Shown here piece after piece: positions 57,949 to 58,335 of a stretch of 61,809 nt of DNA. This stretch comes from a virus. Its lineage: Duplodnaviria > Caudoviricetes. Under the pieces are notes generated by a model. The model searched no databases and was not told where the DNA came from. It saw nothing but the letters and a program-made list of their open reading frames with translations. The DNA lies in IMG/VR virus record IMGVR_UViG_3300012232_000012, positions 1-61,809 of that record; one strand, written 5' to 3'. The first letter of the stretch is position 1. Every line of letters starts with the position of its first letter. The translations under genes were made by a program, and so were the position numbers.

Positions 57949-57987
57949 AAAAAATCCCCCGCGCCCGTTAAGGCTTGGGGGATTTTT
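57949..57987 (-). terminator. intrinsic (bidirectional) terminator ending the early operon
   Basis: aaaaatccccc ... gggggattttt. Confidence 0.8.
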
Positions 57988-57993
57988 CTACTG

Positions 57994-58061
57994 TGGAGGT
58001 GGTGGGTATCGAACCCACGGCTCAGGCGGCGTCCCGCCTGAGTGGTCGCCAGCCCATCCCC
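57994..58061 (-). ncRNA. tmRNA-like alanine tRNA-like domain lacking an mRNA-like domain
   Basis: GGGGAUG/CACCUCC-A acceptor with G3.U70, stemless D-loop ending CGAC, 9-bp stem with GACG loop, T-arm GUGGG-UUCGAUA-CCCAC. Confidence 0.75.
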
Positions 58062-58063
58062 AA

Positions 58064-58217
58064 GAGCATCGTGCTGGTGTGCTATTACGCCAAAGGTTTC
58101 CCGTAAATCAGCGCCCTTCATCGCACGCTGTCTGAACGCCGTGTCGCTTTCGACGGCCCGGTACTCCCACTCCTTAGATGGTGGCTGCTTCTAAGCCAAC
58201 ATTCCAGCACGATGCTC
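58064..58217 (-). ncRNA. 23S rRNA H43/H44 (GTPase-associated centre, L11-binding) mimic RNA with 78-nt insert
   Basis: AUGUUGGCUUAGAAGCAGCCA (58202-58182) and GCGUAAUAGC (58090-58081) match 23S 1057-1077 and 1091-1100 as I recall them; closed by a perfect 14-bp helix. Confidence 0.85.
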
Positions 58218-58286
58218 AGGACACACCACTTATGGGTGAAAGGAGAGAAAGTCCCATAGTTTGCGGAGTGATGTGTCCTGAGCATC
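58211..58286 (-). ncRNA. long hairpin with anti-SD loop
   Basis: 15-bp perfect basal stem; inner UAUGGG/CCCAUA stem with loop ACUUUCUCUCCUUUCA. Confidence 0.6.
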
Positions 58287-58335
58287 TGGGGAGTTACCTC
58301 CCCGTTAGCTCCCTAGCAAGAGCCAATCGTCCATT

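Follow-up and report, generated by a model that had tools for sequence, protein, structure and literature searches.

A free-standing phage RNA copying the GTPase-associated centre of 23S rRNA, and a tag-less mini-tmRNA encoded behind it

Introduction

What does a phage encode at the tail of an operon where no credible protein-coding frame is present, and do the structured RNAs found there make up one system or several? The question is raised by IMG/VR record IMGVR_UViG_3300012232_000012 from an uncultured sediment phage with a genome of roughly 62 kb; the entire record, 61,809 bases with a CheckV completeness of 96 % and a G+C content of 52 %, was analysed and is referred to below as the window. 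On its minus strand, the interval 58335–57944 contains no credible open reading frame (ORF). An earlier interpretation made from the letters of the DNA (hereafter, the sequence-only reading) had filled that interval, between an ORF stop at 58336 and a terminator, with abutting structured RNAs, i.e. two hairpins, a copy of the GTPase-associated centre (GAC) of 23S rRNA, and an alanine-type tRNA domain like that of transfer-messenger RNA (tmRNA). All five structures, the terminator included, are found at the places proposed, and the 401 nt from 57940 to 58340 fold at −181.9 kcal/mol, compared with −140.9 ± 6.7 for 100 shuffled versions, none of which was as stable (z −6.15). The two elements of greatest consequence are the GAC mimic (58071–58210), which belongs to an RNA class that is truly new, and the mini-tmRNA directly behind it, which consists of a tRNA-like domain (TLD) and nothing else. 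The sequence-only reading had also proposed that the parts constitute a single translation-takeover system, and it is this last proposal that finds no support in comparison with other phages.

A copy of the GAC in the window

An annotated Escherichia coli 23S gene, found by blastn, served as the reference for the mimic, whose positions are given in what is taken to be the standard E. coli 23S numbering. That numbering was anchored on A1067 and A1095, which the available text of PMC6239185 names and which coincide with the letters expected. Identity to the E. coli sequence amounts to 33 of 39 positions over 1051–1089 and 14 of 18 over 1091–1108. The 5′ half of the mimic corresponds to the top of helix 42 (H42) together with H43, and the 3′ half to H44 together with the 3′ strand of H42; the equivalents of A1067 and A1095 lie at 58192 and 58086, respectively. 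The RNA is closed by a 7-bp helix (58204–58210 with 58071–58077), which can be extended to 14 bp (58064–58217) and which differs from E. coli 23S by compensatory changes. Its two halves are separated by an insert (Table 1) that is predicted to form a short stem bearing two hairpins and that corresponds to the variable domain of the family described below.

The 23S GTPase-centre copy recognized in the sequence-only reading is therefore present, as a conserved and covarying RNA. The window mimic matches the family search pattern exactly, and with the family covariance model R2 it scores 110.3 bits, the fourth-highest of 101 matches, a rank to be read with the window's inclusion in the R2 seed. 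No match to large-subunit (LSU) rRNA was obtained in the window at the gathering score, nor at E ≤ 10 within 57700–58600.

The GAC mimic as a family of covarying phage RNAs

The mimic is widespread. A mimic-specific pattern, which real 23S rRNA does not satisfy, matched 95 IMG/VR stretches, and the 3′ motif, H44 of the conserved ...GGCGUAAYAGCACAC type, lay no more than 900 nt away in 88 of the 100 sources with the 5′ motif. Cultured phages also carry it: blastn of the cassette against phages gave 14 records, and in the six examined, which represent four phages, the same two halves recur with inserts of other lengths. The four are Erwinia phage Kaldavass, Xanthomonas phage XbC2, Pseudomonas phage pf16 and Aeromonas phage 4_4572. 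The eight records left out, namely seven short unannotated Listeria or Staphylococcus records and Paenibacillus phage Pd_22F, may be rRNA carry-over. Within pf16, the mimic sits between tRNA-Asn and tRNA-Pro.

Conservation of the structure is evident from covariation. Across 65 distinct elements, the eight-pair closing helix is 90.4 % paired, as opposed to 34–45 % with slid partners, and all eight pairs show changes on both sides. The pair 1058–1080 is Watson–Crick in every one of the 65 and is represented by all four pair types, and the junction pair 1082–1086 covaries as U-A, C-G or A-U in 62 of them. A covariance model (R2) was made from a seed of 20 short members, and the alignment fitted to it, with 77 distinct rows, has 95.4 % of 1248 cells paired (25–46 % in slid controls) and a covariation score of 0.489 (0.04–0.11 in the controls), with 10 of 17 pairs changing on both sides. 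Neither the paired fraction nor the covariation score was reached by any of 500 shuffles, and three of the 500 reached the count of both-side changes. The covariation across related phages that had been put forward as a check on the GAC copy is thus strong. When R2 was applied to non-seed sequences, pf16 scored 101.9 bits and L157, a metagenome contig, 66.0 bits; E. coli 23S scored 50.2 bits.

The insert is the most changeable part of the RNA. Measured between the search motifs, which is narrower than the full insert, it spans 73–76 nt in the window and 57–308 nt in the family, with a median of 132; source L002 was dropped because its value of 37 came from a mis-assigned 3′ motif. At the base of the window's insert there is an AGUA/GAA arrangement that was considered as a sarcin-ricin-type bulged-G motif and rejected, as it lacks conservation: it occurs in the window alone among the 65 members, its proximal pair is non-standard, and shuffled inserts yield 0.31 per 65.

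As a separate observation, the mimic of L157 (positions 146–414) has a G at the A1067 equivalent (GGCUUGGAAGC) and lies, with spacers of a few nucleotides, between a tRNA and a full-length tmRNA.

The tag-less mini-tmRNA

The RNA behind the mimic aligns with both ends of the Rfam tmRNA model RF00023 (1–374), the middle 300 positions of the model being replaced by a 24-nt hairpin. Its score of 26.9 bits is below the RF00023 gathering score of 47. The acceptor stem comprises seven pairs, including G3·U70 and one A·C mismatch, and is followed by a discriminator A at 57994, directly 3′ of which is CAG, not CCA. There is also a 5-bp T arm, and the D-loop analogue (CUGG..CGAC) falls 3 nt short of the usual length. 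The place of the mRNA-like domain is taken by a 9-bp helix capped with a tetraloop, and the resume codon, tag frame and pseudoknots of that domain are not present. The tmRNA-like, alanine-type tRNA domain of the sequence-only reading accordingly holds up, as a TLD with G3·U70 and discriminator A and without a tag module. Under model R1, whose seed included the window, the TLD scores 52.9 bits, and its RF00023 E-value of 7.6e-9 is the independent measure. ARAGORN called no tRNA or tmRNA gene in the window, and no Rfam family matched the window at its gathering score.

Comparable RNAs exist elsewhere. A pattern consisting of a tmRNA 5′ end, a short gap and a T arm matched 26 viral stretches, among which were 11 well-formed TLD-only RNAs with G3·U70 (eight distinct sequences), one intermediate and 14 chance matches. 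When these eight were aligned together with the TLD of the window, 11 of 19 consensus pairs displayed a compensatory change. BRock, a cultured Streptomyces phage, has an unannotated 81-nt TLD-only tmRNA within its tRNA array (KX925554.1, 97140–97220; L169:1494–1574) that scores 69.2 bits with R1, of whose seed it is not a member, and 64.5 bits with RF00023, i.e. above the cut-off; ARAGORN instead gives a starred tmRNA call of 626 nt at this place. For the 13 TLD loci (the 11 with G3·U70, L111 and BRock), eight are without a tRNA within 1.5 kb, and eight are without one in the whole retrieved stretch. TLD-only tmRNAs appear to be commoner than the literature would lead one to expect, and to be annotated less often, and the window TLD is a new and rather degenerate member of this known kind.

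By blastn against phages, the window TLD gave weak T-arm matches only. Its 3′ 23-mer has a single exact match in 185,579 species genomes, at the end of a genuine tmRNA in a Clostridia metagenome-assembled genome (MAG); naming a host from this match was rejected, the evidence being too thin. Three of the mimic-bearing phages possess acceptor/T-arm elements with G3·U70 that ARAGORN did not call (L072:3188–3260; L006, minus strand, 4978–5049 in oriented coordinates; and L052:2576–2633), and these may be degenerate tRNA-Ala or TLD-like RNAs.

A tRNA slot beside the mimic

The spacing of mimic and TLD in the window follows a pattern seen across the family. In 22 of the 65 distinct members, a tRNA or tmRNA on the same strand starts 10–30 nt past the equivalent of position 1103, immediately behind the closing helix, and in 15 of the 65 one ends 14–30 nt before position 1062. 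The window TLD starts 16 nt past position 1103, within the mode of the distribution (15–20 nt), which places it 9 nt past the 7-bp closing helix and 2 nt past the extended one. A full tmRNA directly follows the mimic in L040 and in L157, where the order is tRNA, mimic, tmRNA and further tRNAs, and directly precedes it in L088. Overall, tmRNA accounts for two of the 61 flanking genes within 150 nt and is no commoner than expected for one gene of an array.

The 5′ ends of both tRNAs and tmRNA are generated by RNase P. A cut by this enzyme is predicted between 58062 and 58061, and the release at the TLD 5′ end that the sequence-only reading had suggested is plausible, given the 22 mimics with a tRNA or tmRNA at such a distance. 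The simplest reading of this geometry is that mimics mature like the members of a tRNA array, the TLD supplying the RNase P site in a phage that has no tRNA. The window shows, in any event, that the slot downstream of the mimic can be filled by a tag-less tmRNA and that the mimic can travel outside a tRNA array, this phage of 62 kb lacking any tRNA gene.

Independence of the mimic and the TLD

Although the two RNAs abut in the window, they occur apart elsewhere. A search of the 100 mimic-bearing sources, 878,842 bases in all, with R1 gave two strong hits only, i.e. the window and L083, whose TLD-only RNA is 3 kb away from the mimic; the next hit, at 35.5 bits, was among ordinary tRNAs. Conversely, R2 found no mimic in the retrieved stretches of the 25 loci that were detected solely by the TLD pattern. 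Whole records of cultured phages agree, in that BRock has a TLD without a mimic, and pf16 and Aeromonas phage 4_4572 have a mimic without a tmRNA-type RNA. Kaldavass has the mimic and sub-threshold hits to the tmRNA model only, which were rejected as TLDs, being ordinary tRNA-like sequences. A second mimic–TLD fusion was sought with strict patterns, in collections that may not show the window's own record; among viral contigs all five hits were chance matches in coding DNA, and among JGI metagenome contigs the 31 hits comprised 30 chance matches and one mimic followed by a full tmRNA.

The proposal that the parts constitute one conserved system is thus not supported, in view of the separate occurrence of its modules, the presence of a TLD-only RNA in just two of 100 mimic sources and the lack of a second fusion among the contigs searched. 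These observations suggest that the fusion is an idiosyncratic, compact arrangement, not a conserved cassette.

Integrity of the assembly and evidence of transcription

The element is genuinely phage-borne: in an independent DNA run, taken from a different sample, 57932–58082 and 58067–59086 are assembled with zero differences, and these contigs connect the mimic with phage ORFs and, at its other end, with the TLD and terminator. A chimera with host rRNA, which had been named as a risk, is for practical purposes ruled out by the same contigs.

The stretch, or near-identical DNA, is present in 24 metagenome runs from sediment, freshwater sediment and soil, six of which are RNA libraries; one of the 24 may be the source. 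Coverage was taken from four runs, as assembled contigs only. From the RNA libraries, the stretch 58143–58302 is covered by a single contig, X23 (160 nt, depth 4.4, one difference), and upstream ORFs are covered by others. In metatranscriptomes mapped at 90 % identity, a depth of 10,000–30,000 was reached at 58168–58202, on the 33–35-nt core of H43; as a sign of expression this spike was rejected, being cross-mapping of bacterial 23S rRNA, the loose ends of which continue as true H44. Expression studies of the mimic family must consequently rely on the insert or the closing helix.

Proposed function

With regard to how the two RNAs would be processed, what they would bind and how they would affect the host, one explanation is judged probable, though well short of secure: the locus would supply a processed decoy of the uL11/factor site and an inhibitor of trans-translation, as two independent modules at the non-coding tail of an operon. 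The TLD sits in the slot that is held by an ordinary tRNA after the mimic in many other phages, and a cut by RNase P at its 5′ end would create the 3′ end of the mimic. On the 5′ side, the 20-bp hairpin stacked on the closing helix would serve as a mark or as protection, and the terminator would end the transcript. Once freed, the mimic would imitate, away from the ribosome, the docking site of uL11 and the translation GTPases. The TLD would bind SmpB, and probably alanyl-tRNA synthetase (AlaRS) and EF-Tu as well, and would thereby damp host trans-translation.

Several observations weigh against this decoy-and-inhibitor account. The family departs from rRNA at fixed points, with a G at position 1089 and G·A at 1090/1101 in 55 of the 65 members where E. 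coli has A-U. Binding of the mimic to uL11 is likely but not given; it cannot be assumed, because the G·A combination occurs at 1090/1101 and the insert enters the junction there. Furthermore, most of H43 and H44 was set by the search patterns, and their invariance is partly by construction. The window TLD, for its part, falls below its relatives with RF00023 (26.9 bits, compared with 54.8 for L083 and 64.5 for BRock) and is less canonical on account of its short D-loop analogue, A·C mismatch and lack of an encoded CCA. The RNA-library contigs give weak support to transcription of the RNA cluster, as assembled contigs for which DNA carry-over is possible, and none of those from the four runs covers 57903–58142, the TLD included, a gap that says nothing either way. 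Finally, the closest relative found, L100, whose helicase is 47 % identical to that of the window, has no mimic within its 10.5 kb.

Alternative explanations

The proposal that a 16S-tail mimic, the GAC mimic and the TLD form one co-adapted takeover set, possibly as a single unprocessed RNA, draws on the way in which the parts abut at 0–2 nt before one common terminator, on the exchange of 7 bp between hairpin and closing helix at nearly equal energy, on the sub-threshold L12-like and RMF-like ORFs of the genome, and on the L083 contig, with its mimic and TLD-only RNA 3 kb apart. It is nonetheless quite unlikely, given that TLD-only RNAs occur in two of 100 mimic sources and the mimic in none of the 25 TLD-pattern loci nor in BRock, that pf16 and Aeromonas phage 4_4572 carry the mimic without a tmRNA-type RNA, that the strict patterns found no second fusion, and that the resemblance to 16S amounts to a 6-nt string. 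A less ambitious role for the TLD, as a mere handle for processing or stability (an RNase P site and a 3′ cap) with no part in trans-translation, has somewhat more to recommend it and may be entertained tentatively; the TLD sits exactly in the downstream tRNA slot (16 nt, the mode being 15–20), it is degenerate (26.9 bits, compared with 54.8–64.5 in other TLD-only RNAs), and the phage has no tRNA gene. Set against this, G3·U70, discriminator A and the tmRNA-type D-loop analogue (CUGG..CGAC) have all been retained, and eight of 13 TLD loci are without a tRNA within 1.5 kb, so that the class stands on its own. On a par with the handle as a minority possibility is a mimic whose target would not be uL11 but agents that attack or read the GAC, be they thiopeptides (which bind jointly with uL11), methyltransferases, ribosome-targeting toxins or defence effectors, or else factors docking on it, such as RelA, EF-G or IF2. 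The equivalents of A1067 and A1095, which are taken to be contacts of factors and thiopeptides partly on the available text of PMC6239185, are kept, and the habitat is sediment and soil; yet there is no specific evidence for such targets, the two adenines were set by the search patterns, and L157 has a G at the 1067 position.

A leader RNA of the ribosomal-protein type, in which an rRNA mimic controls the downstream gene in cis, would be in keeping with Kaldavass and XbC2, where a ribosome-binding site and a small ORF come immediately after the mimic. In the window, however, the TLD and terminator come next, and not an ORF; many mimics lie between tRNA genes, no ribosomal-protein gene is nearby and no Rfam leader matches, all of which makes cis-regulation very improbable. 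An artefact or relic, whether a 23S rRNA chimera or an attP (phage attachment site) remnant of the 3′ end of a host ssrA gene, might be suspected from the 33–35-nt H43 core, which is nearly identical to rRNA and draws rRNA reads, and from the TLD 3′ 23-mer, which is identical to the end of the Clostridia MAG tmRNA. This suspicion is, for practical purposes, refuted: the junctions recur, with zero differences, in the assembly of an independent sample; the mimic has a 78-nt insert, a covarying self-closing helix, homologues in about 100 phage contigs and no LSU match; and the TLD has both a 5′ and a 3′ half, unlike an attachment site, in a 96 %-complete record without an integrase (no Phage_integrase match was obtained in the record). 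A further reading, and something of a long shot, is that the elbow of the TLD would dock on the H43/H44 loops of the mimic in the manner of an A/T-state tRNA, yielding an off-ribosome pseudo A-site that traps RelA, SmpB·EF-Tu or other factors sensing the contact between tRNA and GAC. Were this true, the proximity of tRNAs to 22 of the 65 mimics, at 10–30 nt, would be functional and not only a convenience for processing.

Relationship to known systems

The mimic most resembles the 23S GAC itself (E. coli about 1051–1108, in the available text of PMC6239185), its H43 stem-loop and H44 loop being nearly letter-identical to that domain. It keeps the pairs 1082–1086 and 1058–1080 by covariation, and position 1061 is variable in mimics, as it is in natural GACs according to the same text. 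A GAC rRNA fragment of about 60 nt binds uL11 and thiostrepton (PMC6239185, available text). Unlike the 23S domain, the mimic is free-standing, has its own closing helix, is phage-encoded and often lies among tRNA genes; it also has the insert at 1089/1090 (78 nt in the window, 57–308 nt in the family) and G·A at 1090/1101.

Precedent for the TLD is closer to hand. Hudson, Lau and Williams (2014) described the ssrA of mycobacteriophage DS6A as 'TLD only' (PMC4131195), and a molecule resembling the DS6A TLD is a strong inhibitor of tmRNA that may act by titrating SmpB (PMC4131195; PMC11915505); a 2025 paper on the tmRNA database adds plastid forms without a coding sequence (PMC11915505), these statements being those of the available parts of the two papers. 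Like the DS6A RNA, the window TLD is phage-borne and of about 65–80 nt, with a G3·U70 acceptor stem, D-loop analogue and T arm, and it has a short helix in place of the pseudoknots and tag frame. It differs from the DS6A type, with which it was compared by description only, in being shorter and less canonical, in having no encoded CCA and in being fused 2 nt behind another RNA gene.

Two further comparisons concern the arrangement. Large-phage tRNA arrays with an embedded tmRNA share with the window the spacers of a few nucleotides and the junction at which a mimic is followed by a tRNA-type gene; the window phage, unlike them, has no tRNA, its array being reduced to mimic and TLD at the end of an operon. 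The rRNA-mimicking leaders of ribosomal-protein genes, such as the L10 leader (presumably Rfam RF00557), similarly place a copy of a ribosomal-protein site in an extra-ribosomal RNA. Those leaders are bacterial 5′ untranslated regions that copy local features, whereas the mimic is a near-complete copy of a domain, resides in phages and is not upstream of a ribosomal-protein gene.

The claim that the combination had not been described therefore divides, since a TLD-only phage tmRNA has been published (DS6A), and the GAC mimic is absent from Rfam 15 and no description of it was found in full-text literature searches. The significance of the mimic lies in its being an RNA gene, present in many unrelated phages, that copies the docking site for uL11 and GTPases on the ribosome as a separate molecule. 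Should uL11 or translation factors prove to be its ligands, the mimic would constitute a novel type of viral RNA decoy directed at ribosome architecture, with consequences for the way in which phages are seen to deal with the stringent response, with ribosome assembly, and with antibiotics or toxins that target the GAC. The stretch of about 400 nt from the hairpins to the terminator is a compact construct that can be expressed directly.

Anatomy of the RNA cluster

The features of the locus are listed in Table 1 in the order of transcription from the minus strand.

Table 1. Features of the RNA cluster and its flanks in the window
Feature	Position	Strand	Basis or remarks
Sigma-70-like promoter match, TTGCCT-17-TAGAAT	58333..58361	−	9/12 consensus positions; inside the end of the upstream ORF
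GUAA (GNRA) tetraloop hairpin, 6 bp	58288..58303	−	−12.8 kcal/mol, z −3.4, 1/200 shuffles as good
Long hairpin: 20 contiguous bp, 8-nt internal loop, 6 bp, 16-nt loop	58211..58286	−	Folding
GAC-mimic RNA, 140 nt	58071..58210	−	Identity to E. coli 23S; family model R2; covariation
78-nt insert of the mimic	58092..58169	−	Between the position-1089 and position-1090 equivalents
UU spacer, extended closing helix to TLD	58062..58063	−	Sequence
TLD-only mini-tmRNA, 68 nt	57991..58061	−	RF00023, 26.9 bits, E 7.6e-9
Intrinsic terminator: 12-bp A/U-flanked G+C stem, small inner hairpin, then U run	57944..57988	−	Inverted repeat, folding

Upstream of the mimic, the GUAA hairpin of the sequence-only reading is present with the stability given in the table. 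The long hairpin is far more stable (−40.8 kcal/mol, z −8.9, none of 200 shuffles as good). Its arms are 95 % complementary as DNA, and the pairing works solely on the minus-strand RNA, because one pair of the arms is G·U. It abuts the closing helix of the mimic with zero unpaired bases between, and a 7-nt repeat allows its basal 7 bp to be exchanged for the 7-bp extension of the closing helix (−90.6 compared with −89.5 kcal/mol). A single variant at 58221, from one contig at a depth of 4.4, would break one pair of this hairpin. The 20-bp helix would plausibly be a substrate of RNase III or a 5′ stabilizer.

The loop of the long hairpin is pyrimidine-rich and contains CUCCUU, on which the sequence-only reading based a likeness to the anti-Shine–Dalgarno 3′ end of 16S rRNA. 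This mimicry could not be upheld, resting as it does on six nucleotides that are the sole point of likeness and of which the genome has 54 copies, both strands counted; the chance of finding CUCCUU in a given 16-nt loop is about 0.5 %, a figure to be read in the knowledge that the comparison was made after the fact.

The terminator folds at −24.3 kcal/mol (z −4.4) and was overlooked by a simple terminator scan because its loop exceeds 8 nt. As for initiation, the promoter match at the end of the upstream ORF is a possible start of the RNA cluster's own, identified by its consensus letters; weak sigma-70-like sites number five in 3 kb, as against 2.3 expected, each being a consensus match only.

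Neighbouring genes and other features of the genome

The ORF that stops at 58336, upstream of the RNA cluster, encodes 91 aa on the minus strand. Past the terminator, the next minus-strand ORF begins at 57930, but its true start is probably 57864, because a homologue with 70 % identity, P0002, begins at Met23 of the window ORF, and that start would leave about 80 nt from terminator to gene. Two homologues of this ORF were found in the protein collection, i.e. one identical and P0002, which is on a contig of 1.6 kb. An SNF2 helicase is encoded 1.4 kb downstream of the cluster, and the functions of the other neighbours were not recognized by Pfam or PHROGs. Querying viral contigs with the helicase gave three loci, the best of which is 47 % identical, and the mimic is in none of them; a protein-based scan of metagenome contigs gave no relative of this phage. 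Just upstream of its helicase gene, L100 has odd tRNA-like elements at 4757–4838 and about 4900–4940, with a 7-bp acceptor-like stem, a T arm and a UUCGAUGAC stretch; they were not called by ARAGORN and score 21.4 bits with R1.

The bL12-like and RMF-like ORFs that the sequence-only reading had enlisted for a translation theme show near-threshold similarity only. The 'bL12-like' ORF (1956–2240, minus strand) scores 20.0 bits to the bL12 C-terminal domain in Pfam, for which the cut-off is 25.9, and the 'RMF-like' ORF (8698–8931, minus strand) scores 27.2 bits (E 2.7e-7) against a cut-off of 27.9; such similarity exists, and both matches are below the Pfam thresholds. Neither ORF matched a PHROG family, and neither an SmpB gene nor a uL11 gene was found in the window.

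Elsewhere in the window, near-perfect inverted repeats of 19–20 nt with loops of 3–4 nt occur at 2268–2308 and 4856–4899, with the arm ends TCGCTC...GAGCGA in common, and an ORF of 3316 aa occupies 15888–25838. The two repeats and this ORF bring to mind what are presumably the counterparts in N4-like phages, namely hairpin promoters and the virion RNA polymerase. Lastly, a perfect sigma-70 consensus (TTGACA-16-TATAAT, 12 of 12 positions) is located at 57110–57137 on the plus strand, opposite to the strand of the surrounding genes.

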